Source: Squalus acanthias
Lineage: Eukaryota
Direction: 5' to 3'
Assembly: GCA_030390025.1 (NCBI GenBank)
Contig: CM059431.1
Coordinates: forward strand, 115,756,001-115,820,000
DNA: 64,000 nucleotides
How positions within the stretch are numbered: the stretch's first letter is position 1; each line of letters opens with the position of its first letter. The notes under the pieces are model-generated. The model was not told the DNA's origin and searched no databases. It saw only the letters and a list, made by a program, of their open reading frames with translations. Shown piece by piece: positions 2,026 to 63,738 of this stretch. The position numbers and the translations under genes are program-made.

Positions 2026-2465
2026 TCTGTTATGCTTAACTAACCTGTTGGTGTTACTGGAAGATATATCTGACTTTGTACATAAGGATAAGTCAGTTGA
2101 TATCTGCTTGGATTTTCAGAACGCTTTTGACAAGGCTCCATATTGGTGATCAGTGACTAAAGTAAGAAGACGTAGGTGATGTTTGATGGATAATTGATTT
2201 GGAAACAAGGGACAGAGGCGAGACATCAAAGGGAAGTTTACGAGTTGGAAAGAGGTTACAAGCAGGATGCCCCAATTATTAGTATATATAAATGATTTGT
2301 ATAAATGGTATTGTGAGCAAAGTTTCTGAATTTTTAGATGATACCAAAACAAAAGGCAGAGGAAAAAACGAGGAACAATGCATCCTGTGCTAAACTTCAC
2401 ATTTCTGCAAAATTGGGAGTATTATTCTAGTGTTAGTGTGACACAAGAAACTGTCCTGTACCAAC

Positions 2466-3360
2466 GAATCACAGAATGTCACAGCACAGAAGCAGGCCAT
2501 TCTGCCCATCAAGTCTGTGCTGGTGTGTTTTTTTCTACATGAGCCACCTAGTTTTATCCCACTCTCCTGCTCACTCCCCATACTCTCTTTAACAAGCAAC
2601 TAGCTAATTCCCTTTTAAAAGAATCTATGGACTCTGGTTTGTTGAAATGATTTGAAGATTCTAACCAGTTTCTGTGTAAAAGAAATAAAAACAGAAAATG
2701 CTGGAAATACTCAGCAGGTCAGGCAGCATCTGTGGAAAGAGAAACAGACTTAACGTTCTAGGTTGATGACCCTTCGTCAGAACGTTGGTGATTCGATGGT
2801 ACAGGACAGCTTCTTGTGTCACACTAACACTAGAATAATACTCCCAATTTTACAGAAATGTGAAGTTCAGCACAGAACATTCTGACGAAAGGTCATCGAC
2901 CTGGAACGTTAACTCTGTTTCTCTCTCCACAGATGCTGCCTGACCTGCTGAGTATTTCCAGCATTTTCTGTTTTTATTTCAGATTTCCAGCATCCGCAGT
3001 ATTTTGCTTTTGTATCTGTGTAAAAGAACTTTCTTCTAACCTGTCCTTTAATTCTTTTTGTGATAATCTTAAATCTGGCTCCCTCTCCTTACTGTCTTGC
3101 TAATCGGTGGAAATTAAACGCTCACTATTTATTTTATCATAACCCTTGATGACCTCTATCAGGTCATTCCTTAATGTTTTCAGCTCTATTGAAAGAAAGG
3201 TCGAACGTCCTGAATCTTTGTAACACTAACCCCTCCTCTCTGGTAACATCTGAATGAATCCACACTGGACATTTTCCATTGCTTTTCTATTCTTCCTATA
3301 ATGGAGCACTCAAAACTGTTCACAATACTCCAACTGCATCCTAATTAAGGTCATTCTATG
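2466..3360 (-). mobile_element. CR1 LINE 3' fragment, interrupted at 2685-3014
   Basis: CR1-type 3' tail (gaatcacagaat...gaagcaggccattctgcccatc) and decayed ORF2 C-terminus on the minus strand. Confidence 0.75.
2682..3014. mobile_element. Penelope-like element 3' end as an inverted repeat with captured spacer
   Basis: About 105-bp arms at 2682-2786 and 2876-2980; flanking direct repeat TCTGTGTAAAAGAA (2671-2684, 3015-3028); decayed hammerhead-like CTGACGA-stem motif; same family as 63481-63612. Confidence 0.75.
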
Positions 3361-4132
3361 AAACTTCCCTTTACTCCTATCTGTTCCTTTCTGCCCGCCA
3401 ACTATCTCTCTATCCATACAGCCACATTCCCCTGGATTCCATGGGCTATTATCTTTGGCATTGCTCTCTAATGCGGTAGCGTATTAAATGCTATATAGGC
3501 AGTATAAGTGAGCATGAAGCTGTAATATACCTTTCGCCATGATCTCGATATGTTCATTTCTGATCTGTATCATCAATCACACTGTGCTTATAATTAGAAC
3601 TGGAGCAGTCAATTATAGATTACAGTATTGTGATAAAATCTAAACAATTTAAAAACGTGATCAAGATTAGGATCATGTGTAGGGCAAAGTCATTTGTTGC
3701 GTTAATTAATTTACCGTCACTCAGAAATTGGCATTTTCACTGCCTTCGGGAATTTTTAAACAAAATTGTTCTCGGACAGTAAATCATGTTACATGTGGGG
3801 AATGAAGAAATTCATGGGATTTGATGCAGAATGAAGCATCACACCAAACTATTTGGCCCAATTAAGGGTCTTTGAGGGAGAAATACAATTCATGGCTGCC
3901 AGTTTTTTTTGGATAAAATTGCTGTAAGGCCTCCAAATTTCACGCTGCGATCGGACGTGCCCGAACTACGCCAGAGTTACGCCGGTCGCTATGTTGACTC
4001 GGGTGACTTTTAGTCATCCAGGGTGCCTGCCTGAAAGCAGCGGGAGCCTCAGGAATCTATGTAAATTAGAGCCCTGCGACTGGTTAAGGACCATTCTGCC
4101 AAACTGAACTTTGCGAGCGTTGTATTCATTCA

Positions 4133-4657
4133 TTCTACAAAGTCTTGGTTAGACCACACCTGGAGTACTGTGAGCAGTTCTGGGCACCACACCTTAGGAA
4201 GGAAGTATTGGCCTTAGAGGGAGTGCAGTGTAGATTTACCAGAATGATGCCTGGACACCAAGGGTTAAATTACGATGAGAGATTACACAAACTAGGGTTG
4301 TATTCCCTGGAATTTAGAAGGTTAAGAGGTGATTTGATCGAAGTTTTTAAGATATTAAGGGGAACTGATCGGGTAGATAGAGAGAAACTATTTCCGCTGG
4401 TTGGGGAGCCTAGGAAGCGTAGTCTAAAAATTAGAGCCAGACCTTTCAGGAGTGAAGTTAGGAAACACTTCTACACGCAAAGGGTGGTAGAAGTTTGGAA
4501 TTCTCTTCCATAAACGGCAATTGATGCGAGGTCAATTGTTAATTTTAAATCTGAGATTGATAGATTTTTGTTAACCAAAGGTCACAGATCAGCTATGATC
4601 TAATTAAATGACAGAACAGGCTCGAGGAGCTAAATGGCCTACTCCTGTTCCTATATT
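4133..4657 (+). mobile_element. CR1 LINE 3' fragment
   Basis: ORF 4145-4513 [15 protein letters not shown]...LGLYSLEFRRLRGDLIEVFKI...FYTQRVVEVWNSLP plus CR1 3'UTR. Confidence 0.95.
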
Positions 4658-4949
4658 CTAAACCCCCACCGCCCCCCCACCCCCCCATACACACATAAAT
4701 CCTAGGCAGCAATAGTTGGGAAGAAGATTGCAACAGTGTTATTTAATGGGATGCTCAGCTGCATTCAGGTAAGTCTCTGGTTAACTGCTTTAGACTGCTG
4801 GTGGATGTTTGGGCTTAGATCTGGCTGTGCCGGCTGCTCTAGCTGGGTTAACAAATTGTGGAGAGTTATTTTATGGGATGCAGGACAATCACTTCCCAGG
4901 GACTCGTGCACAAAGTTACTCTGCCGACGTGGGCGTGCTGCTCGGTCTA

Positions 4950-10109: not shown

Positions 10110-10891
10110 GGCCTAGAAATAACGACGTTCATTTTCGGGCGCTCTCCCCCCACCCTCCCACGCGGGTGATACTTAATCCTGCGCATGAATGGTAAGGTCC
10201 GAGGAGCCCCAGATACTGGGCCTCAGACTTTATTCGCATAGGAACGGCGCTGCGGGAGGAGGCCAAGAAGGTAAGTGGTGGAAGTTTGGGCCACTGCTAA
10301 TACCGCAGCGGCCCATAGGTAGGTGTTGGCCTCTGGGGTGGAGGGGGGGATCGCAGGCCTTGGAGGGATTGTGGGCCTTGGGGGGAATCGCGGGCCTTGG
10401 CGGAGTAGTGATTGGTGGCCGCGGTGGTGGGGGCAGGGGGGGGAAGGAATAGAGTCAGCTGGCAGCAGCCTGCAGGATTGTGGCCTAAGTTGGGGCTGGT
10501 GGGGAGGGCGATTGGGCATTTCTGGGCCATGGTGGGGAAGGGAGATTGCCTCCCAGCTCCACTTTCAGAGGTAAGTGACTTACCTTTTTTGTTGCAGGTT
10601 TTCTACAGGGTTGGTTTCCCCGAATGCAACCCCTGGTGTCGATGGCTGCCTCAGGACAAACCAATCATGCAGTGGGAAATTCAAGTAGACGTTAGTCCCC
10701 TTATTTGCATATTGCAAAGGACCTAACGTCTGATTCAGGCATGCGTAAAGGACGCCTCTTGTTTGTCCCAATATGACGCCCGACACACTTCCGGTCAGAA
10801 GTATGCGAGCGCTTCCTGCCCGTCATTTTGGGGACTTGGGAGACCACACAGCACCTGAAAAATGGGCGCTATGCAGCCCAATTTCTAGGCC
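10110..10891. mobile_element. Harbinger-type MITE
   Basis: TIR GGCCTAGAAAT / ATTTCTAGGCC with 3-bp TSD AAT/AAT. Confidence 0.9.
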
Positions 10892-10961
10892 AATGAGTCT
10901 TTACATAAATTGATGAGTATACTGTCTCCAGAGCAGTTTTGGTGTTTTTTTGAGGTACATT

Positions 10962-11713
10962 GGCCCAGAAATTCGGCTGTTGTCGGGTGAGTACGCGCTG
11001 TGTACTCACCCGTAAGGCCACTTGAAGTGCCGGTTTCCTGCATGCACTGCGCATGCGTGGGAAACCGGAACTTCCGGTCTCGTGAAGGGAGGGGTACAGA
11101 GGTGAACCGCGTGTGCGGGAGAGGCTGCGCGCACGCAGCGAACTTCGTTTTTTTTTTAGGTTTCTCCGGGAAGGTAAGTATGGAAGAAGCTGCGCTTTTA
11201 AAAAGGAGGCGCAAGACCCGTTTTTAACAAGGTAAGTGGTTAATTCATTACAATTAAAAAAAAATTTCAACAGGTTTATCTTTAAAGAAAGGTAAGTTTA
11301 TTTTTAGCACCATTAAAAAGTATGGTAATTTTTTCAAAAATTTTAATTTTTGTTTAAAGTAGTTAATTTATTTAACTTATAGTTATTTTAAAAATGTGAT
11401 GTTTTAAAAAAAATGTATTTGAAGTTTAGGTGTTGTTTTGGGACCGATTTCAATTCATAGATTTGACAGGTCTCCCTGTCAAATCTATGAATGAAAATGG
11501 CCTGCTAGGATTGGCTCTCCATGGCCCACGTGATCCCAGGGGACGCTTCGAACTAACTGCGCCCCTGGGACACGCAAGCACTGCGCGTCGGCAGCTGGAG
11601 GAGGCCCAGGACCTGAAGTTCTCGTGGGCCCAAAACACAACAGCAGGCGCGGTAGGTAAATACGCGCGCGATGCTTGCACCCGCAGGAATCCGGAAAACC
11701 GAATTTCTGGCAC
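10962..11713. mobile_element. Harbinger-type MITE, family copy 1
   Basis: TIR GGCCCAGAAATTCGG / CCGAATTTCTGGCAC; flanks ATT/AAT; the empty site (gaggtacATTattttggct) is seen in the paralogous segment at about 15612-15630. Confidence 0.92.
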
Positions 11714-11914
11714 AATATTTTGGCTACGGTATGGGAAAAAAATCATCTGTTTTCAACTAGTGAGAGAGAGCTCGTGATCAATTGTACAAAAGACACTCAT
11801 CTTACGCATAACCCCATAAATTAAAACATGCTGGTGCTTCCCAGAGAGAATCTTTGATCAGTATATCTCAGTCATGGTGTGCAAAGATATTGGGGGTAAT
11901 TTCGTGAGCACACA

Positions 11915-12110
11915 CTGACCTCTCGTGCATCCTGGATTTCCTTTGTTCCACCATTGGTGGCCGTGCCTTCAGCTGTCTAGGCCCTAAGCTCTGGAATTCC
12001 CTCCCTCAACTTCTCCACCTCTCGCTCCTCCTTCAAGATGCTGTTTAAAACCTACCTCTTCGACAAAAGCTTCGTTAAAGGCAGTATATCCATGCAAGTT
12101 GTTGCTGTTG
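11915..12110 (+). mobile_element. L2 3' fragment (paralogous copy at about 15822-16016)
   Basis: ccaccattggtggccgtgccttcagc...ctctggaattccctcc, similar to 6190-6320. Confidence 0.75.
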
Positions 12111-12217
12111 TGAAGAACCTTGCCTGCCACTTGCACATTTCAGGCGTGTTGCTCATCATTTTCTGCTACATGCTGCAGCGGACAAGTTTCCTCAGCACCA
12201 GTATAATAGTCAGAAAA

Positions 12218-12660
12218 TAAAAAGAAAGACTTGCATTTATATGGCACCTTTCATCACAAAGTGCTGATCACACAGCCAATGAAGTACCGTCACAGATGTA
12301 ATGGCGGAAACACAGCAGGCAATTTGCATGCAGCAAGATCCCACAAACAGCAATGAGGTAATGAGCAGATCATTTGTTTTTGATGTTTGGATGAGGGATA
12401 AATATTGCCCAGGACACCAGGGAGAACTCCCTTGCTCTTTTACAAAATGGTGCAATGAGATTTTTTTACGTTCACCTGAGAGGGGAGACGGGGCTTCGGT
12501 TTGACGTCTCATCTGAAAGACGGCAACTCTGTCAGTGCAGCGCTGCCTCAATACTGCACTGGAGTGTCACCACAGATTTTTGTGCTTGAGTGGGACATGA
12601 ACCCACAACCTTTTGACTCTAAAAGCAGGAGTTCTACCCACTGAGCCACAGCTGACACAA
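12218..12660 (-). mobile_element. Deu-domain SINE
   Basis: Reverse-complement similarity to 7045-7500. Confidence 0.85.
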
Positions 12661-13289
12661 TGGTGAGGGGGAAGGGGAGGGTGCCAGGGGGGATAGGTCT
12701 CTCGGGGGTGGGGGAAAGGTGGGGTCAGCAAGGTCTATTTGAGGTTAATTGATTGGGAAGTTCACGAACAGCAAGCACCATTAGAATATGCTCGAAAAGG
12801 TCATCTTCTGATGTGCCTGGTAAAGATTCTCAATGGGGGAAAGTGCGGGGGGGAGGGGGGAGAAGGGCCTTCTCCCAGGCTTGGGAAAATTTGTGTAGGA
12901 TGTTGGGGCAACACACATACTCACTTAATAGGTACCTTTATGAGGTTTTAGGGGCCTGGAGCATGATTTTCAATAGAGAGACAGTCATGGACCATTCCAA
13001 AATGAGGTGCACAAAATATATCAGCACAGCAGCAGTACCTGCACAGGGAGCTTGCCTATTTTATAAGTATAAATATCGGGCTGTTTGCCTCCCCAGCAGC
13101 ATCCTGAAGATAAGTATGAGATGGGAAGAAGAATGGGAGGGGGCCAATTGCAATACACTGGAGTTCCAGCTTAGATTTTGTGTTCAAGTCTCCATGGAGG
13201 GGGATTTGAACCCACAACTTCTTGATCCAGAGGCAACGAGAGCTACCCACTGAGCCGCACCTGGCACTTCTAAGTGTCCAGCCCCATGT

Positions 13290-13506: not shown

Positions 13507-13845
13507 AATGTGGTTTTTCTACAATCCTCTGTTTGCAAACACTGTGATGGGGGTATTATCTTATTGATAAAATGTGCAACAAAACTTCTTTCATTTGTTT
13601 TTGAATATATGATGTAACGATGTAAATCGTATTGTAATGTACTAATTTGCCGATACATATAAGACAAGTAACACACGGCTCTTCTGTCTGTTCCTGGAAG
13701 AAAAAAAATTGCCATGCACTATTTGAATGGAGACAGCCTCTCAAGCTATCTTCTAATCTTGTGCCAAATGCTTGATTCATTGTGGTTCAAAGGGGGAACA
13801 GGCTGGTATATGATTCACGGCGAGGCTTGTTTTCACTTGTGAAGT

Positions 13846-14170
13846 TCACAGAACAGAATCACAGAATCCCCACAGTGCAGATAGAGACCATTTCGGCCCA
13901 TCGAGCCTGCACCGACACATATCCCACCCTATCCCCGTAACCCCACGTATTTAATCCCCCCTAACACTAAGGGTCAATTTATCATAGCCAAATCAACCTA
14001 ACCCGCACATCTTTGGACTGTGGGAGGAAACCAGAGCACCCGGAGGAAACCCACGCAGACATGAGGAGAATGTGCAAACTCCACACAGACATTCACCCGA
14101 GGCTGGATTCGAACCTGGGTCCCTGGCGCTGTGAGGTAACAGTGCTAACCACTATGCCACCATGTTGCCC
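13846..14170 (-). mobile_element. HE1-like V-SINE with CR1-derived tail
   Basis: tRNA-like head (gggcaacatggtggcatagtgg...ggttcgaatcc), V-domain (gtgtggagtttgcacattctcc...tgcgtgggtttcctccgggtgctc) and short-repeat tail on the minus strand. Confidence 0.88.
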
Positions 14171-14432: not shown

Positions 14433-15371
14433 TGGTCTGAGGAAGTTGCAGAAACAACATTAAAGGAGGTAACAAGACACAGCTTAATCCGAGAAAATTG
14501 GGGAGAAAGAGAAATATAGAGGGTGAAATCGTAACTTTTTTTGTTGAAAGAAACACATAACAATTGGAGGACAGAGGTCTGGTATATGATTCTAATTGGC
14601 ATACTGCATCTTTAGGTAGCCATTATGACAGGTATAACATAAGATTGCCTAGTAGGCACTTACCTTGAATTATCATGTTCAACCGTTACAGAATAATTGT
14701 CTTTATCAAAGTAGACAGCAAAGGATGCAAATAAATCATCAACCTTTGTCACTTAATATATTTTTTCTGTTAATTTTTTAGACGGGTACAAGTAAATAAA
14801 ATGACAGTTCATGCAGAAATGAAAGGTTCTCACAATTATTATGTACATCTCTTCTGTCAGAACATAGCGATGAAAGGATCTTTCTGTGATTTTTTCATTG
14901 ACAGTGTTGTCACATTGAGTTAAATGAATCCTCGGTCTGCACTGAGTTAGTTGATCCAGGCCAGAGCAGTGTTAAGGGTGCTGAAATTGTTAGCAGTGCT
15001 CCCGAATTGAGGAAGCGAATAATCAGCCAGGCTTCCCACTCCTAATCCTGATACATCGATACTGACTGGAAGGGCATGAGTGAGTACACTAAGTGAGGAC
15101 AGAAATCAAGCTCATCTGTGATGCCTTCCACAGTTGGATAACCTGACAGCACTCGCTATCAACGCACCAGTGGGTGACTGCCCTCAAGTCCTAGGGAAGC
15201 CCATCCCAGTGAGATAGTCAATTGGGAAAGGAGAGGAGAGGAGAAAACTGGAGGAGAAAATTGTAGAGAAAAAAAATCAGAGAAAGGAGGACAATTAAAA
15301 TGCAAGTCTAAAAAGAAGGCTGTTGTAACTAATACAGACATAAATTCATTTTTGATGTACTTTGCAGAAAT
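14433..15371 (+). repeat. Local duplication segment X', paralogue of 21014-22195
   Basis: Near-identical by eye; lacks the 21934-22148 insertion. Confidence 0.95.
14925..15170 (+). mobile_element. Old SINE-like repeat, possibly UCON3-domain related; paralogue at about 21525-21765
   Basis: tctgcactgagttagttgatc...aatcagccagg...gtgaggacag...ctgtgatgcc resembles an ancient vertebrate SINE domain from memory. Confidence 0.4.
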
Positions 15372-15380
15372 CTAAATCAA

Positions 15381-16822
15381 AACGTCTGATTCAGGCATGG
15401 GTAAAGGACGCTTCTTGTTTGTCCTTACCCAATATGACGCCCGGCGCACTTCTGGTCAGATGTGGCGAGCGCTTCCTGCCCGTCATTTTGGGGACTTGGG
15501 AGACCGCACAGCACCTGAAAAATGGGCGCTATGCAGCCCAATTTCTAGGCCAATGAGTCTTTACATAAATTGATGAGTATACTGTCTCCAGAGCAGTTTT
15601 GGTGTTTTTTTGAGGTACATTATTTTGGCTACGGTAGGGGAAAAAAATCATCTGTTTTCAACTAGTGAGAGAGAGCTCATGATCAATTGTACAAAAGACA
15701 CTCATTCTTACACATAACCCCATAAATTAAAACATGCTGGTGCTTCCCAGAGAGAATCTTTGATCAGTATATCTCAGTCATGGTGTGCAAAGATATTGGG
15801 GGTAATTTCGTGAGCACACACTGACCTCTCGTGCATCCTGGATTTCCTTTGTTCCACCATTGGTGGCCGTGCCTTCAGCTGTCTAGGCCCTAAGCTATGG
15901 AATTCCCTCCATCAACCTCTCCACCTCTCGCTCCTCCTTCAAGATGCTGTTTAAAACCTACCTCTTCGACAAAGCTTCGTTAAAGGCAGTATATCAATGC
16001 AAGTTGTTGTTGTTGTGAAGAACCTTGCCTGCCACTTGCACATTTCAGGCGTGTTGCTCATCATTTTCTGCTACATGCTGCAGCGGACAAGTTTCCTCAG
16101 CACCAGTGTAATAGTCAAAAAATGTAGCTATTATTAATAAAAAGAAAGACTTGCATTTATATGGCACCTTTCATCACAAAGTGCTGATCACACAGCCAAT
16201 GAAGTACCGTCACAGATGTAATGGCAGAAACACAGCAGGCAATTTGCACGCAGCAAGATCCCACAAACAGCAATGAGGTAATGAGCAAATCATCTGTTTT
16301 TGATGTTTAGTTGAGGGATAAGTATTGCCCAGGACACCAGGGAGAACTCCCTTGCTCTTTTACAAAATGGTGCCATAAGATTTTTTACGTTCACCTGAGA
16401 GGGGAGACGGGGCTTCGGTTTGACGTCTCATCTGAAAGACGGCAACTCTGATCAGTGCAGCGCTGCCTCAGTACTGCACTGGAGTGTCACCACAGATTTT
16501 TGTGCTCGAGTGGGACCTGAACCCACAACCTTTTGACTCTAAAGGCAAGAGTTCTACCCGCTGAACCACAACTGACACAATGGTGAGGGGGAAGGGGAGG
16601 GTGCCAGGGGGAATAGGTCTCTCGGGGGTGGGGGAAAGGTGGGGTCAGCAAGGTCTATTTGAGGTTAATTGATTGGGAAGGTCTCGGACAGCAAGCACTA
16701 TTAGAATATGCTCGGAAAGGTCATCTTCTGATGTGCCTGGTAAAGATTCTCAATGGGGGAAAGTGGGGGTGAGGGGGGAGAAAGGCCTTCTCCCAGGCTT
16801 GGGAAAATTTGTGTAGGATATT
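15381..16822 (+). repeat. Local duplication segment Y', paralogue of 10725-12905
   Basis: Near-identical by eye, including the right end of MITE 10110-10891, the L2 piece and the SINE; lacks MITE 10962-11713. Confidence 0.95.
16137..16580 (-). mobile_element. Deu-domain SINE (duplicated copy of 12218-12660)
   Basis: Same flanks and same internal deletion pattern as 12218-12660. Confidence 0.85.
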
Positions 16823-17573
16823 GGGCCAGAAATTCAGCTCTTGTCGGGTGAGTACGCGCTGTGTACTCACCCGTAAGGCCACCTGAAGTGCCGGTTTCCC
16901 GCATGCGTGGGAAACCGGAACTTCCATTCCCCTGAAGGGAGGGGTTCAAAGTCGAACGTGTGCGCGGGAGAGTGAGCACGCACGCAGCGAACTTCATATT
17001 TTTTTTCAGGTTTCTCCGGGAAGGTAAGTATGGAGAAGCTGCACTTTTAAAAAGGAGACGCAAGGCCTGTTTTTAACAAGGTAAGTGGTTAATTAATTAC
17101 AATTTAAACATTTTTTCAACAGGTTTATCATTATTACATACTTTAAAGAAAGGTAAGTTTATTTTTAGCACCGTTAAAAAGTATAATTTATTTTTTCAAA
17201 AATTTAAATTTTTGTTTAAAATAGTTAATTTATGTAACTTATAGTTATTTTAAAAATGTGATTTAAAAAAAAATGTATTTGAAGTTTAAGTGTGGTTTTG
17301 GGGCCGATCTCTATTCATAGATTTGACAGGTCTTCCTGTCAAATCTATGAATGAAAATGCCCTGCTCCGATTGGCTCTCCATGGCCCACGTGATCCCAGG
17401 GGACGCTTCGAACTAACTGCGCCCCTGGGATATGCAAGCACTGCGCGCCGGCAGCTGCAGGAGGCCCAGGACCCGAAGTCCTCGTGGGCCCACAGCACAA
17501 CAGCAGGCGTGGTAGGTAAGTACGCGCGCGATGCTTGCACCCGCAGGAAGCCGGAGAGCCGAATTTCTGGCCC
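16823..17573. mobile_element. Harbinger-type MITE, family copy 2
   Basis: TIR GGGCCAGAAATTC / GAATTTCTGGCCC, flanks ATT/ATT; colinear with 10962-11713. Confidence 0.92.
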
Positions 17574-17907
17574 ATTGTTATCTGGTCCGCTCTATTCACC
17601 AATCACTATAGAAATAAGTTTGTATATTAAAGTCTTAGTTCTGCCTATGTGTCTGAAAAATCTCATTATAAGTTAAGTTCTGATCTTAAGCCTTCCTTTT
17701 GTGCTAATTCTTACAATTCACTTAACAGCCTTAGATGAGTCCATGGCCCAAGTATCTGCATTACCGACTGCTGGTCCATGTTAGGTGAGATTTATACATC
17801 GGTCCATTGGGCTAGTCCCAGTACAAAGATGATTCTACTGTTTTGGAGACCATTAGTTATGTGGATGAATTTTCACTGCAGGCTTACTTGAGAAGTCTCA
17901 AACAAGC

Positions 17908-19605: not shown

Positions 19606-21933
19606 ATTATGTTTTGTTTCTTATATTGTAGATGCGTTCAAGCCAGCTGTGTGTGCAAAAATGTCATTCAAAGCCCTGAGTTTTGGTTCCATTTCAGTTC
19701 TGAAGTGGCAAGATGATAACTGTTGAAGTCGGAAAGCTTTAATTACTACAACAACAACAACTTGTATTTATATCTTCATACCTTGTATATTTTGTACAAA
19801 GCTAATGCAAACTGCTTCAAGAGCAGTTGTTCATTAAAATAAATAGCAATTTTGTTGGCCTAGTGACATTTTAAACACACTTTAAGGCATTTTTCTGTCT
19901 CAACAGATACAATTGAATCTTGATAAATACTTAACTCACTTGCCAAGCCATTTTATGCATGGATCACAAATGTGACTGGCTTACAATTAGGGATTTGTCT
20001 GCATGCAGAAGCTGAGAAGCTGGATCATCGTAAAAGGAAAGGAAAACATGACAAATAAAATTAAATAGGATTAAAAATATTTGCGGCTGGTTTTCTTGGA
20101 GACAGCATCTGAGGAAAGCCTATTGCCCAGGTGCAGAGGTCAGAATAAGGCAGAGCAGAGACCTGTCGCACCATGTCTCTACCCCATTTGTATTGTCCTA
20201 GGGTTTCTGAAGCTATTCCCAAGGGGTAGAGCAGACTCTGCACCTGTATAGGTGCAGGCCAAATGCTGCCATGGAAATGAGGAGGGAAGGGACGTTTCTG
20301 GTCTATTCACCTCACTTTCCTGTCATTATCCTGGGAAGCGAAGCCAGATGCAGGGACCCTCGAAAAAGCCAGCCATGGGGCTTGCGCTTGGGCCTCCCTC
20401 AGATCAGGGTGGGGGAAGTGCGGGGGTACGGGGGGGATGTAGGGGTGTAGGGGTGGCAGGCATCAAGGTGAAAAAGGCCCTAAAGCTGACTGGCCTTTTT
20501 GTTGCAGGGTCTGGAGGCCTTCTAACTATTCTCTAGAATCAACCTGATAGCGATAAGTGATGAATCAAATTCAGTACGCGAATTAATACAAATGAAACAA
20601 TTTCAGATTAACATGCAAATAAATGAACTTCATTCAATTTTAAAATGTGTCCCTTTAGAAAATGCTATCATGTACACAAAGCAAGTCAGATGTCTCTCTG
20701 TTTGTGTGCCACCAATGCACATCACCTATTATTGATTTCTTGCTATTATGATGGTTGGTGGAAAGTTATTTCCATCAGTACCTGGAACATCAAGACTAAG
20801 TGGCGTGTTACTTGATTTTATTATTTTCTTGATTTTATTATTTTAAAGTGCAGGTATGAAAATATTGGAGTGTCTTTGGGTGGGCCCCATTGCTAGAACA
20901 GGATGTCCAATAACCCAACTGCAAAGCCTCTGTCTTGGTCAGTACAGCAAGTTTGTTCTGAAGCAGACCTTACAGCTGTTGCATTGCGAATGTTTACAAT
21001 CTACTTTTCACATTGGTCTGAGAAAGTTGCAGAAACAACATTAAATGAAGGAACTTTCAGGAGGTAACAAGACACAGCTTAATCCGAGAAAACTGGGGAG
21101 AAAGAGATATATAGAGGGTGAAATCGTAACTTATTTTGTTGAAAGAAACACATAACAATTGGAGGACAGAGGTCTGGTATATGATTCTAATTGGCATACT
21201 GCATCTTTAGGTAGCCATTATGACAGGTATAACATAAGTTTACCTAGTAGGCACTTACCTTGACTTACCATGTTCAACCGTTACAGAATAATTGTCTTTA
21301 TCAAAGTAGACAGCAAAGGATGCAAATAAAACATCAACCTTTGTCACTTAATATATTTTTTCTGTTAATTTTTTAGACGGGTACAAGTAAATAAAGTTAC
21401 AGTTCATGCAGAAATGAAAGGTTCTCACATTTATTATGTACATCTCTTCTGTCAGAACATAGCGATGAAAGGATCTTTCTGTGATTTTTTCATTGACAGT
21501 GTTGTCACATTGAGTTAAATGAATCCTCGGTCTGCACTGAGTTAGTTGATCCAGGCCAGAGCAGTGTTAATGGTGCTGAAATTGTTAGCAGTGCTCCCGA
21601 ATTGAGGAAGCGAAAAATCAGCCAGGCTTCCCACTCCTAATCCTGATACATCGATCCCGACTGGAAGGGCATGGGTGAGTACACTAAGTGAGGACAGAAA
21701 TCAAGCTCATCTGTGATGCCTTCCACAGTCGGATAACCCAACAGCACTCACTGTCAATGCACCAGCGGGTGACTGCCCTCAAGTCCTAGGGAAGCCCATC
21801 CCAGTGAGATAGTCAACTGGGAAAGGAGAGGAGAGGAGAAAACTGGAGGAGAAAAATTGTAGAGAAAAAAAATCAGAGAAAGGAGGACAATTAAAATGCA
21901 AGTCTAAAAAGAAGGCTGTTGTATCTAATATAG

Positions 21934-22148
21934 GTCATGATGCGGAGATGCCGGTGTTGGACTGGGGTGGACAAAAATGAGAAGTCGCACAACACCAGGT
22001 TATAGTCCAACAGCTTTATTTGAAATTACGAGCTTTCGGAGCTCTGCTCCTTCTTCAGGTACAGACAGGTACAGCAGAGCTCCGAAAGCTCATAATTTCA
22101 AATAAAACTGTTGGACTATAACCTGGTGTTGTGCGACTTCTCATTTTT
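21934..22148. mobile_element. Penelope-like palindromic insertion
   Basis: 78-bp arms at 21971-22048 and 22073-22150; TSD GTATCTAATATAG (21921-21933, 22149-22161); absent from the paralogue at about 15324-15337. Confidence 0.85.
22030..22060 (-). ncRNA. Putative minimal hammerhead ribozyme core
   Basis: Minus strand reads CUGAAGA-A-GGAGC-AGA-GCUCC-GAAA, i.e. CUGANGA box, stem II and GAAA box, as known for Penelope-like elements. Confidence 0.55.
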
Positions 22149-22992
22149 GTATCTAATATAGACATAAATTCATTTTTGATGTATTTTGCAGAAATTAGAA
22201 TGCATTTCTGAAAACTTAAATGGCTATTGGAACTAATGTCGAAATAAATGCAACTGTGATCTATTTCGCAGAAGTGCTGCGATCCCTCAGAGCCATTGAG
22301 AACAGAGTACTAAGTGCAGTTAGAAATGTTGTCAGACATAATGAAGGAAAACATGGAAATGTCATTCGGTCACAAAGGGAGACAGCCAGAGTTACAGCAA
22401 CACACACAGAATCTATTTTCATGTGGATACAAGATTACCTGAAAGACAATTGGCTAAGATTACAAAGAGAGCTGCATAATCAATTCCCACATCATGTTGT
22501 AGAAACATGGCTTCCTGACCACATCCCCTCCAACATTCTTGGGATCATCCATCATGTTTACAGCGGATTGTTGCTGCTCTAAAATACAGGAAAAGATTGC
22601 GAGACAGATTCCCCAGACCCAGACAGACCCACATGGCCCTGAGCACCCCGCTAAAACTATCCCACACTGCAGTCCAAGTAGATAATGTTTTCTTTGGGGG
22701 GGGTTTGGGAATCTTTGCTCCTTCTACAATAGTGAATGTTCTTTCAATTTGTGCACACCATTGCAAAATTGAATAGCGTTTTCAGTCATTAAATAAGGAT
22801 TCGTAATTAATCATGAAAAAGGACATGCATGGAAAATATATTTTCTAATTTTATTAATTAGTACCATTGACATGTGGCTTTGTTCCATTCCCATCAAAGA
22901 ATAATTAAAGAAAATTATAACAGGATTCTTTTCTTTAACAATCTGGGAGAGAATGCTCTTTTAAAATGGAGCATTTAGAGTGATCACACAAC

Positions 22993-23152
22993 GGGGTAGA
23001 TTTTGACTTTGTAAAGTGGGTGATCGTGAGTCGGCGGCCTATTTTACATCTCTCCCGATTCCAATGGAAATAAAAATTGAAAGAGATGTAGAATGGGCTC
23101 CCGTCTCGCTATCACTGGCTTTACACACTCGCACAAAGTTAAAATCTACCCC
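22993..23152. mobile_element. 160-bp fold-back MITE
   Basis: TIR GGGGTAGATTTTGACTTTGT / ACAAAGTTAAAATCTACCCC with an internally palindromic body. Confidence 0.85.
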
Positions 23153-23303
23153 CATGTTTGAAAGATTCGCTTCTTGAGTTCCACCACGTCTGACCGTGAA
23201 AAATTTCATTTAATTTACAGTGAAATACCTTTAATCAAATTAAGTTTCTAAGTGCCAGTTTATTGCTGTGATATTTCCAGTGTTTCATGGTCTGCCCCGC
23301 AGC

Positions 23304-23513
23304 GAGTCATGCTTCAGAGGAGGATAAAAAAAAAACTTCTCTCTCTGCACTCCACCGCATAGCAGTCAGTCAGGCAACAGAAGATCAAAATGGCCACACT
23401 GACCACATGCAGGAACAATAAGGAGGTGGTCTCCGTGGGGATTTTGATCTTTTTGTTGCCCGGCTGCTATGCGGTGTAGAGAGAGAATTCTCTTTTTCTC
23501 TGAAGTATGACTC
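23304..23513 (+). other. Long imperfect inverted repeat / candidate RNA hairpin
   Basis: Arms at 23304-23406 and 23426-23513 pair in blocks; most point differences within paired blocks are G-U compatible on the + strand. Confidence 0.65.
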
Positions 23514-26051: not shown

Positions 26052-27372
26052 CAGAATCCCTAGGGATTGCAGTTTAGATGGAAACCATGCTAGCCCAGAA
26101 TTCCTCGGGGCTGCAGTGGGGGCACAAACGGTGCTAGCCCAGAATCCCCAGGGGCTGCAGTAGAGGCGGAAACCGTGCTAGCCCAGAATCCCTAGGGGCT
26201 GCAGTAGAGGCACAAACGGTGCTAGCCCAGAATCCCTAGGGGCTGCAGTAGGGGTGGAAACCGTGCTAGCCCAGAATCCCTAGGGGCTGTAGTAGAGGCA
26301 CAAACGGTGCTAGCCCAGAATCCCTAGGGGCTGCAGTAGAGGCACAAACGGTGCTAGCCCAGAATCCCTAGGGGCTGCAGTAGAGGCACAAACGGTGCTA
26401 GCCCAGAATCCCTAGGGGCTGCAGTAGGGGCGGAAACGGTGCTAGCCCAGAATCCCTAGGGGCTGCAGTAGAGGCGGAACCCGTGCTAGCCCAGAATCCC
26501 TAGGGGCTGCAGTAGAGGCACAAACGGTGCTAGCCCAGAATCCCTAGGGGCTGCAGTAGAGGCACAAACGGTGCTAGCCCAGAATCCCTAGGGGCTGCAG
26601 TAGAGGCACAAACGGTGCTAGCCCAGAATCCCTAGGGGCTGCAGTAGGGGCGGAAACGGTGCTAGCCCAGAATCCCTAGGGGCTGCAGTAGAGGCGGAAA
26701 CCGTGCTAGCCCAGAATCCCTAGGGGCTGCAGTAGAGGCACAAACGGTGCTAGCCCAGAATCCCTAGGGGCTGCAGTAGAGGCACAAACCGTGCTAGCCC
26801 AGAATCCCTAGGGGCTGCAGTAGAGGCACAAACGGTGCTAGCCCAGAATCCCTAGGGGCTGCAGTAGAGGCACAAACGGTGCTAGCCCAGAATCCCTAGG
26901 GGCTGCAGTAGGGGCGGAAACGGTGCTAGTCCAGAATCCCTAGGGGCTGCAGTAGAGGCGGAACCCGTGCTAGCCCAGAATCCCTAGGGGCTGCAGTAGA
27001 GGCACAAACGGTGCTAGCCCAGAATTCCTAGGGGCTGCAGTAGGGGCACAAACGGTGCTAGCCCAGAATCCCTAGGGGCTGCAGTAGAGGCACAAACGGT
27101 GCTAGCCCAGAATCCCTAGGGGCTGCAGTAGAGGCACAAACGGTGCTAGCCCAGAATCTCTAGGGGCTGCAGTAGAGGCACAAACGGTGCTAGCCCAGAA
27201 TCCCTAGGGGCTGCAGTAGAGGCACAAACGGTGCTAGCCCAGAATCCCTAGGGGCTGCAGTAGAGGCACAAACGGTGCTAGCCCAGAATCCCTAGGGGCT
27301 GCAGTAGAGGCACAAACGGTGCTAGCCCAGAATCCCTAGGGGCTGCAGTAGAGGCACAAACGGTGCTAGCCC
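26052..27372. repeat. 44-bp minisatellite, about 30 units
   Basis: Unit GGTGCTAGCCCAGAATCCCTAGGGGCTGCAGTAGAGGCACAAAC; period confirmed at 26221 and 26265. Confidence 0.97.
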
Positions 27373-27960
27373 ACCAGGCAACAGGCGGCTGCTCTTCAGC
27401 TGCAACCATTACTTGCTCCTTACCCGTGCACTGTAACCTCTCAGTGTTCATCTCCTTGAGGTTGCTATCTGTATCCTCTAGGGTACGTGTAGCTGTGCTG
27501 GTGCTTGGTAAAGGAGGTAAGAATGGTGTGGGATTCAGAGTTGCTCAGCAACACTGGGTGTGGACAGTCTTCTTCCACAGGCCTATAACAAACAGAAGAG
27601 GAAAATGTCTCAAAATGCTGCTTCAAAAAAGAACCTTCAAGCAGTTTTTCGGCGAGTGTACTGTACATGATATTCTTAAGGTTGAGTTTATGCCCTAGAA
27701 GCTGCACAGAGAGAAAAGGCAGAGCACTAAGTTGGTAGGAGTGGCCCTGAGTTTAGGAGCGGCGGCATCTAGATTCACCTTCTCTTACTGTCTTAAAACC
27801 TTTGCACGGTATAATGCTCAGTGTGACCTCCACAAATGGATTCAAGGGCTTGTACTGCCTGAGACACCTTCCAGTTTGGGTCTGCTCCCTTGCCATCTTG
27901 TCCAAGAGCAGATCAGTAGTCTTGAGATTTTGCATATATTGTTGCCAATGCTCCGGCCTA
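27373..27960 (-). pseudogene. Probable decayed exons of a Harbinger Myb/SANT partner gene
   Basis: Convergent with the 25.5-kb transposase; minus-strand acceptor (tttgttatag near 27583) followed by Ser/Thr/Pro-rich remnants; no intact domain is visible. Confidence 0.4.
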
Positions 27961-29990: not shown

Positions 29991-30443
29991 GAGCCAGTGC
30001 TCCTCCGGGCCAGTGCTCCTCCGAGCCAGTGCTCCTCTGAGCCAGTGCTCCTCCGGGCCAGTGCTCCTCCGGGCCAGTGCTCCTCTGGGCCAGTGCTCCT
30101 CCGGGCCAGTGCTCCTCTGAGCCAGTGCTCCTCCGAGCCAGTGCTCCTCTGAGCCAGTGCTCCTCCGGGCCAGTGCTCCTCCGGGCCAGTGCTCCTCTGG
30201 GCCAGTGCTCCTCCGAGCCAGTGCTCCTCTGAGCCAGTGCTCCTCCGGGCCAGTGCTCCTCTGGGCCAGTGCTCCTCTGAGCCAGTGCTCCTCCGGGCCA
30301 GTGCTCCTCTGAGCCAGTGCTCCTCCGGGCCAGTGCTCCTCCGGGCCAGTGCTCCTCTGGGCCAGTGCTCCTCCGGGCCAGTGCTCCTCTGGGCCAGTGC
30401 TCCTCCGGGCCAGTGCTCCTCTGGGCCAGTGCTCCTCCGGGCC
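29991..30443. repeat. 16-bp minisatellite, about 28 units
   Basis: Unit GCCAGTGCTCCTCYGR. Confidence 0.97.
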
Positions 30444-47995: not shown

Positions 47996-50900
47996 GGATT
48001 GGTGCTCAGGGTCGGGAATGATGCTCAGTGTGGGGAATAATTCTCAGTGTGGGGAGTGGTGCTCAGGGTGGGGAATGATGCTCAGTGTGGGGAATAATTC
48101 TCAGTGTGGGGAGTGGTGCTCAGGGTGAGGAATGATGCTCAGGGTCAGGAATGATGCTCAGTGTGGCGAGTGGTGCTAAGTGTGGGGAGTGATGCTCAGG
48201 GTCAGGAGTGATGCTCAGGGTCAGGAGTGGTGCTCAGGGTCGGGAGTGGTGCTCAGTGTGGCGAGTGGTGCTCAGTGTGGGGAGTGATGCTCAGTGTGGG
48301 GAGTGGTGCTCAGGGTCGGGAGTGGTGCTCAGTGTGGCGAGTGGTGCTCAGTGTGGGGAGTGGTGCTCAGTGTGGGGAGTGGTGCTCAGTGTGGGGAATG
48401 GTGCTCAGTGTGGGGAGTGGTGCTCAGGATCGGGAGTGATGCTCAGTGTGGGGAGTGGTGCTCAGTGTGGGGAGTGGTGCTCAGTGTGGGGAGTGGTGCT
48501 CAGGGTCAGGAGTGATGCTCAGTGTGGGGAGTGGTGCTCAGTGTGGGGAGTGGTGCTCAGTGTGGGGAGTGGTGCTCAGTGTGGGGAGTGGTGCTCAGTG
48601 TGGGGAGTGGTGCTCAGTGTGGGGAGTGATGCTCAGTGTGGGGATTGATGCTCAGTGTGGGGAGTGGTGCTCAGTGTGGGGAGTGGTGCTCAGTGTGGGG
48701 AGTGGTGCTCAGTGTGGGGAGTGGTGCTCAGGGTGGGGAGTGGTGCTCAAGGTGGGGAGTGGTGCTCAGTGTGGGGAGTGGTGCTCAGGGTGGGGAGTGG
48801 TGCTCAGTGTGGGGAGTGATGCTCAGTGTGGGGAGTGGTGCTCAGTGTGGGGAGTGATGCTCAGTGTGGGGAGTGATGCTCAGTGTGGGGAGTGGTGCTC
48901 AGTGTGGGGAGTGATGCTCAGTGTGGGGAGTGATGCTCAGTGTGGGGAGTGGTGCTCAGTGTGGGGAGTGGTGCTCAGTGTGGGGAGTGATGCTCAGTGT
49001 GGGGAGTGATGCTCAGTGTGGGGAGTGATGCTCAGGGTCAGGAGTGATGCTCAGTGTGGGGAGTGATGCTCCGTGTGGGGAGTGATGCTCAGTGTGGGGA
49101 GTGGTGCCCAGGGTGGGGAGTGATGCTCAGGGTGGGGAGTGGTGTTCAGTGTGGGGAGTGATGCTCAGTGTGGGGAGTGGTGCTCCGTGTGGGGAGTGAT
49201 GCTCAGTGTGGGGAGTGGTGCCCAGGGTGGGGAGTGATGCTCAGGGTGGGGAGTGGTGTTCAGTGTGGGGAGTGATGCTCAGTGTGGGGAGTGATGCTCA
49301 GTGAGGGGAGTGGTGCTCAGGGTCAGGAGTGATGCTCAGTGTGGGGAGTGATGCTCCGTGTGGGGAGTGATGCTCAGTGTGGGGAGTGGTGCCCAGGGTG
49401 GGGAGTGATGCTCAGGGTGGGGAGTGGTGTTCAGTGTGGGGAGTGATGCTCAGTGTGGGGAGTGGTGCTCAGGGTCAGGAGTGGTGCTCAGTGTGGGGAG
49501 TGATGCTCAGTGTGGGGAATGGTGCCCAGGGTGGGGAGTGATGCTCAGTGTGGGGAGTGGTGCTCAGGGTCAGGAGTGGTGCTCAGGGTCAGGAGTGGTG
49601 CTCAGTGTGGGGAGTGGTGCTCAGGGTCAGGAGTGGTGCTCAGTGTGGGGAGTGATGATCAGTGTGGGGAGTGGTGCTCAGTGTGGGGAGTGGTGCTCAG
49701 GGTCAGGAGTGGTGCTCAGGGTCAGGAGTGGTGCTCAGTGTGGGGAGTGGTGCTCAGGGTCAAGAGTGGTGCTCAGTGTGGGGAGTGGTGCTCAGGGTCA
49801 AGAGTGGTGCTCAGTGTGGGGAGTGATGCTCAGTGTGGGGAGTGGTGCTCAGTGTGGGGAGTGGTGCTCAGTGTGGGGAGTGATGCTCAGTGTGGGGAGT
49901 GGGGCTCAGTGTGGGGAGTGGTGCTCAGTGTGGGGAGTGGTGCTCAGTGTGGGGAGTGATGCTCAGTGTGGGGAGTGGTGCTCAGTGTGGGGAGTGATGC
50001 TCAGGGTCAGGAGTGATGATCAGTGTGGGGAGTGGTGCTCAGTGTGGGGAGTGACGCTCAGTGTGGGGAGTGGTGCTCAGTGTGGGGAGTGATGCTCAGT
50101 GTGGGGAGCAATGCTCAGTGTGGGGAGTGGTGCTCAGTGTGGGGAGTGATGCTCAGTGTGGGGAATGGTGCTCAGTGTGGGGAGTGGTGCTCAGGGTGGG
50201 GAGTGATGCTCAGGGTCAGGAGTGATGCTCAGTGTGGGGAGTGATGCTCAGTGTGGGGAGTGGTGCTCAGGGTGGGGAGTGATGCTCAGTGTGGGGAGTG
50301 ATGCTCAGGGTCAGGAGTGATGCTCAGGGTGGGGAGTGGTGCACAGGGTCAGGAGTGATGCTCAGTGTGGGGAGTGATGCTCAGGGTCAGGAGTGATGCT
50401 CAGTGTGGGGAGTGGTGCTCAGTGTGGGGAGTGGTGCTCAGGGTCAGGAGTGATGCTCAGGGTCAGGAGTGATGCTCAGTGTGGGGAGTGGTGCTCAGTG
50501 TGGGGAGTGGTGCTCAGTGTGGGGAGTGGTGCTCAGGGTCAGGAGTGATGCTCAGGGTCAGGAGTGGTGCTCAGGGTCAGGAGTGATGCTCAGGGTCAGG
50601 AGTGATGCTCAGTGTGGGGAGTGGTGCTCAGTGTGGGGAGTGATGCTCAGGGTCAGGAGTGGTGCTCAGGGTCAGGAGTGATGCTCAGGGTCAGGAGTGA
50701 TGCTCAGTGTGGGGAGTGGTACTCAGTGTGGGGAGTGGTGTTCAGTGTGGGGAGTGATGCTCAGTGTGGGGAGTGGTGCTCAGTGTGGGGAGTGGTGCTC
50801 AGTGTGGGGAGTGGTGCTCAGGGTCAGGAGTGGTGCTCAGGGTCAGGAGTGGTGCTCAGTGTGGGGAGTGATGCTCAGTGTGGGGAGTGGTGCTCAGTGT

Positions 50901-53900
50901 GGGGAGTGATGCTCAGTGTGGGGAGTGGTGCTCAGTGTGGGGAGTGGTGCTCAGTGTGGGGAGTGGTGCTCAGTGTGGGGAATGGTGCTCAGGATCGGGA
51001 GTGGTGCTCAGTGTGGGGAGTGGTGCTCAGTGTGGGGAGTGGTGCTCAGTGTGGGGAGTGGTGCTCAGGGTCAGGAGTGATGCTCAGTGTGGGGAGTGAT
51101 GCTCAGGATCGGGAGTGATGCTCAGTGTGGGGAGTGGTGCTCAGTGTGGGGAGTGGTGCTCAGGGTCAGGAGTGATGCTCAGTGTGGGGAGTGGTGCTCA
51201 GTGTGGGGAGTGGTGCTCAGGGTGGGGAGTGGTGCTCAGGATCGGGATTGATGCTCAGTGTGGGGAGTGATGCTCAGTGTGGGGAATGGTGCTCAGTGTG
51301 GGGAGTGATGCTCAGTGTGGGGAGTGGTGCTCAGTGTGGGGAATGGTGCTCAGTGTGGGGAGTGGTGCTCAGTGTGGGGAATGGTGCTCAGTGTGGGGAA
51401 TGGTGCTCAGTGTCAGGAGTGATGCTCAGTGTGGGGAGTGGTGCTCAGTGTGGGGAATGGTGCTCAGTGTGGGGAGTGATGCTCAGTGTGGGGAGTGGTG
51501 CTCAGTGTGGGGAATGGTGCTCAGTGTGGGGAGTGGTGCTCAGGGTCGGGAGTGGTGCTCAGTGTGGGGAGTGGTGCTCAGTGTGGGGAGTGGTGCTCAG
51601 TGTGGGGAGTGATGCTCAGTGTGGGGAGTTGTGCTCAGTGTGGGGAGTGGTGCTCAGTGTGGGGAGTGGTGCTCAGTGTGGGGAGTGATGCTCAGTGTGG
51701 GGAATGGTGCTCAGTGTCAGGAGTGATGATCAGGGTGGGGAGTGATGCTCAGTGTGGGGAGTGGTGCTCAGTGTGGGGAGTGGTGCTCAGGGTCGGGAGT
51801 GGTGCTCAGTGTGGGGAGTGGTGCTCAGTGTGGGGAGTGGTGCTCAGTGTGGGGAGTGATGCTCAGTGTGGGGAGTGGTGCTCAGTGTGGGGAGTGATGC
51901 TCAGTGTGAGGAGTGGTGCTCAGTGTGGGGAGTGGTGCTTAGTGTGGGGAGTGGTGCTCAGTGTGGGGAGTGATGCTCAGTGTGGGGAGTGATGCTCAGT
52001 GTGGGGAGTGGTGCTCAGTGTGGGGAGTGATGCTCAGTGTGGGGAGTGGTGCTCAGTGTGGGGAATGGTGCTCAGTGTGGGGAGTGATGATCAGTGTGGG
52101 GAGTGATGCTCAGTGTGGGGAGTGGTGCTCAGGGTCAGGAGTGATGCTCAGTGTGGGGAGTGGTGCTCAGGGTGGGGAGTGATGCTCAGTGTGGGGAGTG
52201 GTGCCCAGGGTGGGGAGTGATGCTCAGTGTGGGGAGTGGTGCTCAGGGTCAGGAGTGGTACTCAGTGTGGGGAGTGATGCTCAGTGTGGGGAATGGTGCC
52301 CAGGGTGGGGAGTGATGCTCAGTGTGGGGAGTGGTGCTCAGGGTCAGGAGTGGTGCTCAGGGTCAGGAGTGGTGCTCAGTGTGGGGAGTGGTGCTCAGGG
52401 TCAGGAGTGGTGCTCAGTGTGGGGAGTGGTGCTCAGTGTGGGGAGTGATGCTCAGTGTGGGGAGTGGTGCTCAGTGTGGGGAGTGGTGCTCAGTGTGGGG
52501 AGTGATGCTCAGTGTGGGGAGTGGTGCTCAGTGTGGGGAGTGGTGCTCAGTGTGGGGAGTGATGCTCAGTGTGGGGAGTGGTGCTCAGTGTGGGGAGTGG
52601 TGCTCAGTGTGGGGAGTGATGCTCAGGGTCAGGAGTGATGCTCAGTGTGGGGAGTGGTGCTCAGTGTGGGGAGTGATGCTCAGTGTGGGGAGTGGTGCTC
52701 AGTGTGGGGAGTGGTGCTCAGGGTGGGGAGTGATGCTCAGGGTCAGGAGTGATGCTCAGTGTGGGGAGTGATGCTCAGTGTGGGGAGTGGTGCTCAGGGT
52801 GGGGAGTGATGCTCAGTGTGGGGAGTGATGCTCAGGGTCAGGAGTGATGCTCAGGGTGGGGAGTGGTGCTCAGGGTCAGGAGTGATGCTCAGTGTGGGGA
52901 GTGATGCTCAGGGTCAGGAGTGATGCTCAGTGTGGGGAGTGGTGCTCAGTTTGGGGAGTGGTGCTCAGGGTCAGGAGTGATGCTCAGGGTCAGGAGTGAT
53001 GCTCAGTGTGGGGAGTGGTGCTCAGTGTGGGGAGTGGTGCTCAGTGTGGGGAGTGGTGCTCAGTGTGGGGAATGGTGCTCAGTGTGGGGAGTGGTGCTCA
53101 GTGTGGGGAATGGTGCTCAGTGTGGGGAATGGTGCTCAGTGTCAGGAGTGATGCTCAGTGTGGGGAGTGGTGCTCAGTGTGGGGAATGGTGCTCAGTGTG
53201 GGGAGTGATGCTCAGTGTGGGGAGTGGTGCTCAGTGTGGGGAATGGTGCTCAGTGTGGGGAGTGGTGCTCAGGGTCAGGAGTGGTGCTCAGTGTGGGGAG
53301 TAGTGCTCAGTGTGGGGAGTGGTGATCAGTGTGGGGAGTGGTGCTCAGTGTGGGGAGTGGTGCTCAGTGTGGGGAATGGTGCTCAGTGTCAGGAGTGATG
53401 ATCAGGGTGGGGAGTGATGCTCAGTGTGGGGAGTGGTGCTCAGTGTGGGGAGTGGTGCTCAGGGTCGGGAGTGGTGCTCAGTGTGGGGAGTGGTGCTCAG
53501 TGTGGGGAGTGATGCTCAGTGTGGGGAGTGGTGCTCAGTGTGGGGAGTGATGCTCAGTGTGGGGAGTGGTGCTCAGTGTGGGGAGTGGTGCTCAGTGTGG
53601 GGAGTGGTGCTCAGTGTGGGGAGTGATGCTCAGTGTGGGGAGTGATGCTCAGTGTGGGGAGTGGTGCTCAGTGTGGGGAGTGATGCTCAGTGTGGGGAGT
53701 GGTGCTCAGTGTGGGGAATGGTGCTCAGTGTGGGGAGTGATGATCAGTGTGGGGAGTGATGCTCAGTGTGGGGAGTGGTGCTCAGGGTCAGGAGTGATGC
53801 TCAGTGTGGGGAGTGGTGCTCAGTGTCAGGAGTGATGCTCAGTGTGGGGAGTGATGCTCAGTGTGGGGAGTGGTGCCCAGGGTGGGGAGTGATGCTCAGT

Positions 53901-63203: not shown

Positions 63204-63229
63204 TTCATACTATAACCTCGACCCCTATG

Positions 63230-63612: not shown

Positions 63613-63638
63613 GAACAATAGTACAATACTTTCAGAAG

Positions 63639-63738
63639 TTCACAGAATTCACAGAATCCCCACAATGCAGATAGAGGCCATTTCGGCCCATCGAGCCTGC
63701 ACCGACACATATCCCTCCCTATCCCCGTAACCCCACGT
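63639..63738 (-). mobile_element. HE1-like SINE tail fragment
   Basis: Near-identical to 13846-13948. Confidence 0.85.

Follow-up and report, generated by a model that had tools for sequence, protein, structure and literature searches.

The hallmarks of Penelope-like insertions include a one-sided tail of 30 to 40 nt and an inverted, 5'-truncated copy (PMC8557442; PMC3846280). A minimal type-I hammerhead, with a bulged base before helix II and a palindromic helix III, has been described in Penelope terminal repeats (PMC4209133). An anole element cuts and extends both strands, and its reverse transcription has two start sites, which mark the limits of the tail (PMC11167929). Locally templated insertions are also known for L1, with 22 cases that are typically <250 bp (10.1101/2024.08.27.596794) and three more in cells (PMC11702581).

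In the window, by which we mean the whole 64,000-nt stretch of Squalus acanthias DNA analyzed here, a pair of putative Penelope-like terminal repeats holds between its arms an inverted copy of the neighboring chromosome. With EN+ Penelope insertions (Pen2a_Av of Adineta vaga, PMC3846280; PMC8557442; anole Poseidon in vitro, PMC11167929), this insertion shares head-to-head repeats, a one-sided tail of 30 to 40 nt and a single target duplication. A palindrome at the inverted junction and a hammerhead motif are common to both as well, and host DNA between the repeats has been described (PMC3846280). However, the window insertion has no coding part. Moreover, the captured DNA in A. vaga lies mostly between direct repeats and, in the available part of that report, is not traced to the insertion's own flank, whereas the window has an inverted flank copy in the center of the inversion.

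The L1 insertions likewise copy in nearby genomic DNA of <250 bp, which is attributed to cDNA strand transfer or break-end processing (10.1101/2024.08.27.596794; PMC11702581). Their templates typically lie ≤15 bp from the site, in contrast to 199 to 286 nt here, although the supplements of 10.1101/2024.08.27.596794 may hold longer-range cases. In L1 twin priming, the inverted part of the RNA is a different one, whereas the two window arms represent the same segment. Inverted insertions made by Pol theta end joining or MMBIR (break-induced replication mediated by microhomology) resemble the window spacer in being inverted copies of DNA behind the break, with short imperfect microhomology at both ends and a possible extra slip (PMC11292364; PMC8421209). 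The Pol theta products measure 3 to 30 bp (PMC11292364) and the search in PMC8421209 was limited to templates lying ≤100 bp away, whereas the window copy is 88 nt long and lies 315 nt from its source. The revision of palindromes in mouse transgenes (Akgun 1997 and Cunningham 2003, via the review PMC8701086) is similar in that a perfect palindrome is stabilized by a change at its center. There, 93% of 118 outcomes were deletions (PMC8701086), whereas the window has an insertion with a 9-nt duplication, and its precursor is inferred.

The finding adds one case to an established type of junction scar. Each of its ingredients is known: inverted Penelope ends, local templates in L1 insertions, inverted templated insertions and repair of palindrome centers. 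The literature search, judged from titles and the starts of abstracts and with older Penelope structure papers and most subscription papers outside its scope, returned no description of a flank-derived inverted spacer in a Penelope pair, nor of inverted Penelope ends combined with a locally templated inverted insertion.

Anatomy of the insertion

Self-comparison of the window revealed two inverted arms of 105 nt (2682-2786 and 2876-2980) that are 94% complementary and have 89 nt between them. The arms pair over all 105 nt without gaps, and change is confined to the center. The 14 nt at 2671-2684 recur without a mismatch, as a direct repeat, at 3015-3028 (chance of ~7e-6, allowing 900 offsets). 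It is AT-rich, with A or T at 10 of 14 positions, and its last 3 nt fit the arm as well, which leaves a target duplication of 11 to 14 nt. From its sequence, the insertion at 2685-3014 is read as a head-to-head pair of Penelope-like terminal repeats. Its parts and surroundings are as follows.

2385..2472, plus strand: source segment, ordinary flank just past the 3' end of the host LINE relic; its sole other copy in the window is the spacer
2462..2479, plus strand: sites that may have primed the switch into the source, with matches of 4 nt (2463-2466) and 8 nt (2472-2479), chosen post hoc
2467..2684, minus strand: 3' part of the host LINE (CR1-like), left of the insertion, which aligns to the 3' ends of window paralogs
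2671..2684, plus strand: left copy of the target-site duplication, 14 nt, the final 3 nt common to arm 1
2685..2783, minus strand: arm 1, an inverted, tail-less, putative Penelope-like terminal repeat, whose outer end is the family end pile at 2683-2684 in four of four runs
2778..2786, plus strand: first copy of a 9-nt direct repeat, containing the palindrome center AACGTT
2787..2875, minus strand: spacer, made up of an extra G and 88 nt that copy 2385-2472 in inverted orientation; both of the runs from the window's organism cover it
2873..2881, plus strand: second copy of the 9-nt direct repeat, with its CpG decayed; its first 3 nt, CAG, are the spacer's last 3 nt
2879..2983, plus strand: arm 2, a 5'-truncated, putative Penelope-like terminal repeat, 91% identical to the solo copy at 63481-63613
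2882..2914, plus strand: decayed candidate minimal type-I hammerhead motif, core GAAA changed to GGAA, likewise in arm 1
2984..3014, plus strand: "tail" of ~31 nt, which arm 1 lacks; four of four runs show a pile of family ends at 3012-3015
3015..3028, plus strand: right copy of the target-site duplication, exact over 14 nt
3016..3351, minus strand: C-terminal ORF2 relic of the host LINE, right of the insertion (tblastn E of 1e-15 to a window paralog)

At 84 of 88 positions, the spacer (2788-2875) agrees with the reverse complement of 2385-2472, as stated in the original prediction, which gave an 88-bp inverted copy with four mismatches; G2787 is one additional base. A match this good would arise by chance somewhere in the window with a probability of ~1e-37. 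Source and spacer are 315 nt apart. The source, placed beforehand some 200 to 300 bp upstream of the insertion, was measured at 199 to 286 nt left of the target duplication. The sequence following the source had been said to match the inner ends of the arms, and the 8-mer at 2472-2479, which overlaps the source's last base, does so at seven of eight positions in arm 1 and at all eight in arm 2 (reverse strand). The self-comparison of this region that had been suggested recovered the inverted arms, the spacer copy and the target duplication, in line with the proposed Penelope-like inverted pair and the single target duplication around the whole.

Host LINE and source segment

The host 3' part (2467-2684) scored above 20 shuffles against the 3' ends of the window paralogs in all nine comparisons tried, in one of them marginally. 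The host relic is decayed, with 34% amino acid identity to its paralog. A paralog at ~4100-4670 is collinear with the host across the insertion and contains the duplicated word once. Among six LINE relics searched against Pfam, one gave a sub-threshold match to RVT_1 and five gave nothing. The earlier statement that a 14-bp target duplication lies inside a CR1 stands as to the exact 14 nt in a LINE relic; its motifs are CR1-like.

Public contigs of four runs, two from the window's organism (two samples, two studies) and two from relatives, were aligned on 2200-3399. The source bin at 2400-2439 has a depth of 18 to 41, at flank level, in all four runs, in contrast to 1e5 to 1e7 on the arms. In each of two related organisms, the source lies within one unbroken 688-nt contig (2200-2585, ~95% identity). 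No further copy of the source besides the spacer was found in the 64,000-nt window. Because the source is in place in two relatives and the spacer is located inside the target duplication, the source is the old local DNA and the spacer its copy. Given the flank-level depth of the source and the lack of another window copy, the spacer is neither part of the family consensus nor an abundant repeat, two of the alternatives raised at the outset.

The Penelope-like family

Between 41,000 and 97,000 contigs were placed per run (75,863, 41,451, 95,894 and 96,886 records), nearly all of them on the arms. In all four runs, the ends of family copies accumulate at two places, 2683-2684 and 3012-3015, which are ~30 nt apart in family coordinates. 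The outer end of arm 1 coincides with the first pile and that of arm 2 with the second. Only arm 2 is tailed because the arms end outward at these different piles. Other copies of the family extend 5' of 2880, so both arms are 5'-truncated. A solo copy at 63481-63613 is 91% identical to the arm and carries the tail. Neither an inverted partner nor a target duplication of at least 7 nt was found for it within 63200-63480.

Our own hammerhead descriptor, with one core mismatch allowed, gave two matches in all over the two strands of the window, one of them at 2882. The bulged base and the palindromic helix III of this motif agree with the minimal type-I hammerhead of PMC4209133. Within the core, both arms share a G where the core consensus and the solo copy read A. 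Rfam returned two chance-level matches and no hammerhead, and RNA folds of three hammerhead candidates were no better than those of shuffles. The insertion thus described shows Penelope-like (EN+) features, namely, an inverted truncated copy, a one-sided tail, a degenerate hammerhead and an AT-rich target duplication. Membership rests on structure, since the insertion has no linked coding sequence for a Penelope-type reverse transcriptase or a GIY-YIG endonuclease.

A 23-nt arm pattern had a single match in prokaryote genomes, rejected as chance (a bare 23 nt in DNA of 68% GC, with nothing else alike), and no matches in viral or metagenome contigs.

Junctions and the duplicated center

The family sequence 5' of 2880 is ...TTTTCCAG, both in the solo copy and in the consensus of loose ends from all four runs. 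Both arms stop inward at the same family base and continue with a non-family AAC, where the solo copy and all four runs read CCA. This AAC precedes the family G in both arms (decayed to A in arm 2). Since the first three family bases are its reverse complement, each arm ends in the palindromic hexamer AACGTT. After deletion of the spacer and one hexamer, the inverted repeat pairs from the first base outward at 35 of 40 positions. Removing the spacer and one copy of the center therefore leaves a palindrome with zero spacer, which means that the capture is superimposed on an inversion junction.

A copy of the 9-nt direct repeat stands on each side of the spacer (2778-2786 and 2873-2881), and the three bases with which the repeat begins also end the copied segment. 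The chance of both 3-nt extensions together is ~3e-4, and that of the CAG overlap is ~0.012 (post hoc). Microhomology amounts to 3 nt (CAG) at the right junction and, at the left one, to either 4 nt with a 2-nt slip or seven of 8 nt. Priming at the 8-mer 2472-2479 predicts CT, which is found replaced by one G. Priming on 4 nt at 2463-2466, followed by three more bases and a slip back on 2 nt of homology, explains all bases if A2796 is a later change. These two parses compete, and at least one of the microhomology matches is a coincidence; the 8-mer may have primed the switch.

Among the 15 of 937 family inversion joints that were listed, 10 have both ends inside the arms and were counted; the 5 left out are a joint from 2783 to 2880 and four others that end at the arm limits. 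None of the 10 is exactly symmetric (offsets of -39 to +35). The 2783-to-2880 joint is present in all four runs, with the letters between its ends marked as not known. It could represent the spacer-less palindrome in other copies, or merely longer arms. Short additional letters between the arms occur in 685 family joints (12 listed). A spacer-less center had no match elsewhere in the window, and no spacer-less allele was seen in the contigs of the four runs or in the window.

Coverage by public contigs

The contigs of both runs from the window's organism break at 2409 and 2438, the very points at which source and spacer begin to differ, and the bin of the spacer has cover. By rough arithmetic, its depth is close to flank level (11.9 versus 12.1 and 22.9 versus 21.1), contig depth not being copy number. 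Base 2450 is G in all four runs, matching the spacer, so only three of the four mismatches separate spacer from source. The outer junctions are crossed by contigs by 20 and 23 letters, less than the tool's bar of 31 letters, and no contig across the whole structure was present among the assembled contigs listed. A reading of the doubled depth at 2400-2439 as two-copy coverage was rejected, because most of it comes from two adjoining contigs that overlap.

In the relatives (organisms E and F, runs X12 and X14), contig cover is absent at the spacer bin 2800-2839 and at 2648 and 2662, absent cover not being evidence of absence. The right-hand contigs of these runs cease to fit at 3042, leaving surplus ends of 22 and 17 letters. 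The insertion site in the two relatives (region 2586-3041) may differ from the version in the window. It is compatible with an empty site, a spacer-less palindrome or a local deletion.

Other features of the window

A second head-to-head insertion that resembles Penelope-like elements, but belongs to another family, occupies 21934-22148 (within 21920-22162) and has 78-nt arms that match at 97%. Its 14-nt target duplication is single in a paralogous segment near 15323-15336. The left arm carries a tail of ~37 nt, and an intact-looking minimal hammerhead motif is located at 22058 on the minus strand. The arms are asymmetric, and their junction holds a short tandem piece and not a flank copy. Inversion thus occurs in the window without flank capture.

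A strongly G-skewed satellite of ~15 kb spans 47996-63203 (19-nt unit, 90% matches). Minisatellites are present at 26052-27373 (44 nt, 30 copies) and at 29993-30443 (16 nt, 28 copies), the latter at the 3' end of a LINE relic. Local duplications of 88 to 95% identity link 10725-12910 with 15381-17574 (blocks reordered) and 14433-15371 with 21014-22195. The segments at 13841-13948 and 63635-63738 are the common 5' part of a dispersed repeat and are 93% identical. The copy at 13841, presumably SINE-like, continues to ~14165; the other, at 63635, is truncated and lies directly against the solo Penelope-like copy. Nested imperfect inverted repeats at 22984-23497 could form a long hairpin.

Proposed origin of the spacer

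The anatomy of the insertion, the source of the spacer, the direction of copying and the duplicated center can be read directly from the locus. Symmetric ends and a duplicated center together imply that a perfect palindrome would have been the precursor. We consider it probable, though well short of certain, that the palindrome came first and that the flank was captured second, by a repair-type templated insertion at its center.

A Penelope-like protein would have nicked both strands 11 to 14 nt apart, and reverse transcription would have begun from both 3' ends, each using a different one of the family's two start sites ~30 nt apart, which yielded two facing copies of which one is tailed. As the junctions suggest, these copies would have ended at the same base and been joined without a spacer into a perfect palindrome centered on AACGTT. 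In the same event or later, the palindrome center would have broken or stalled a fork. A 3' end at the center may then have primed ~315 nt leftward on the chromosome through 4 to 8 nt of imperfect microhomology. From there, 88 nt would have been copied inverted before a return to the center through CAG, whereby 9 nt of the center became duplicated. The resulting spacer would stabilize the inverted repeat. The likeliest copier would be a host repair polymerase, either Pol theta-like or acting in microhomology-mediated break-induced replication.

This order is favored because the family sequence stops at one and the same base in the two arms and gives way to AAC in each, because the listed family joints are otherwise asymmetric (0 of 10 symmetric) and because the arms share the non-canonical base in the hammerhead core. 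The match of the outer ends to the family's two preferred 3' ends argues for separately primed arms. Capture of local flank is indicated by the presence of the source, in place, in two relatives at ~95% identity. Inverted local copies flanked by microhomology are a published signature of repair (PMC11292364; PMC8421209), which points to repair-type synthesis. Perfect palindromes are unstable and spacers stabilize them (review PMC8701086), hence the view of the spacer as a stabilizing patch.

Several observations weigh against a palindrome-first order. A spacer-less allele was not among the contigs or in the window. The GTT may come from fold-back of a cDNA end on its own hammerhead AACGTT, although that hairpin is weak (-2.6 kcal/mol in arm 1). 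The left junction has two parses, the odds are post hoc, and the joints compared are 15 of 937. A copy of 88 nt from 200 to 300 nt away exceeds typical repair insertions. The second insertion of the window (21934-22148), with its asymmetric arms and short junction piece, fits joining during insertion. Divergence between the arms (6/105) is indistinguishable from that between spacer and source (3 or 4/88; Fisher p of 0.51 and 0.76), and both are similar to the 4 to 5% distance to the relatives. Ages thus do not decide, and a single event fits equally well.

The original prediction held that two template switches, from element to local chromosome and back to element, occurred in one insertion event and that the structure records how such inversions form. 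It is partly supported. The out-and-back switch into the flank holds, and the divergences fit one event as well as a later capture. The arms were apparently primed separately at two family ends, with the capture on top of the inversion junction, so the locus does not record the formation of the inversion itself.

A repair version of the same idea is the main rival, though distinctly less likely than palindrome first. In a single event without a finished palindrome, twin-primed cDNA ends would have been trimmed and extended on internal hairpins, and one would have snapped back onto the flank before a repair polymerase or end joining sealed the two ends. The shared hammerhead change gives 4 nt of self-pairing at the exact stop, which would account for the identical stops and the GTT on both arms; the indistinguishable ages of arms and spacer, the 685 family joints with short additional letters between the arms (12 listed) and the uptake of local templates by L1 during integration (22 cases, 10.1101/2024.08.27.596794; three, PMC11702581) fit it too. 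However, self fold-back adds GTT and then AA, not CTG, and the hairpin is weak. In addition, the CAG overlap and the left 8-nt match reach 6 nt past the center, which indicates that the other arm was already joined.

It is improbable that the element's own reverse transcriptase laid down one continuous strand from element to chromosome to element and that this detour made the inversion. In its favor, jumps between templates and self-priming have been put forward for Penelope elements, whose terminal repeats can have host DNA between them (PMC3846280), and a single target duplication bounds everything here. Yet the family would have to be read antisense and then sense, and neither the start of arm 1 at the second priming site nor the duplicated center is explained. 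Inverted pairs with short or unknown spacers are common in this family (937 joints), so inversion needs no flank detour.

A transcript reaching from the 3' end of the host LINE into the flank would give the orientation seen, and the source does start at that end, but this is a very unlikely origin for a spacer beside a host relic decayed to 34% amino acid identity with its paralog. An assembly artefact, with the spacer made by a chimeric or fold-back read, is hardly credible even with no listed contig spanning the structure, as spacer and source differ at three to four positions and the arms at six, and the spacer is covered by contigs that branch at the divergence points in two samples from two studies.

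Implications

The origin of inverted Penelope ends is still open (PMC8557442; PMC11167929), and this locus keeps junction detail that orders the steps. With the palindrome placed first, the order read from it is two primed copies, a symmetric join and then a flank patch. A single event proves no rule, but its signature of symmetric arm ends, a duplicated center and a flank-derived spacer is countable. Scoring that signature across this very abundant family would separate the element-made from the host-made parts of inversions.

More speculatively, twin-primed Penelope insertions in sharks may regularly make perfect palindromes with a stop point set by a hairpin in the hammerhead region, which the host would regularly defuse by copying flank from hundreds of bases away into their centers. 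We regard this generalization as doubtful at present. If true, the very numerous inverted pairs in these genomes would let Penelope end joining and palindrome repair be assayed naturally in the germline, and they would be a steady source of small local inverted duplications.
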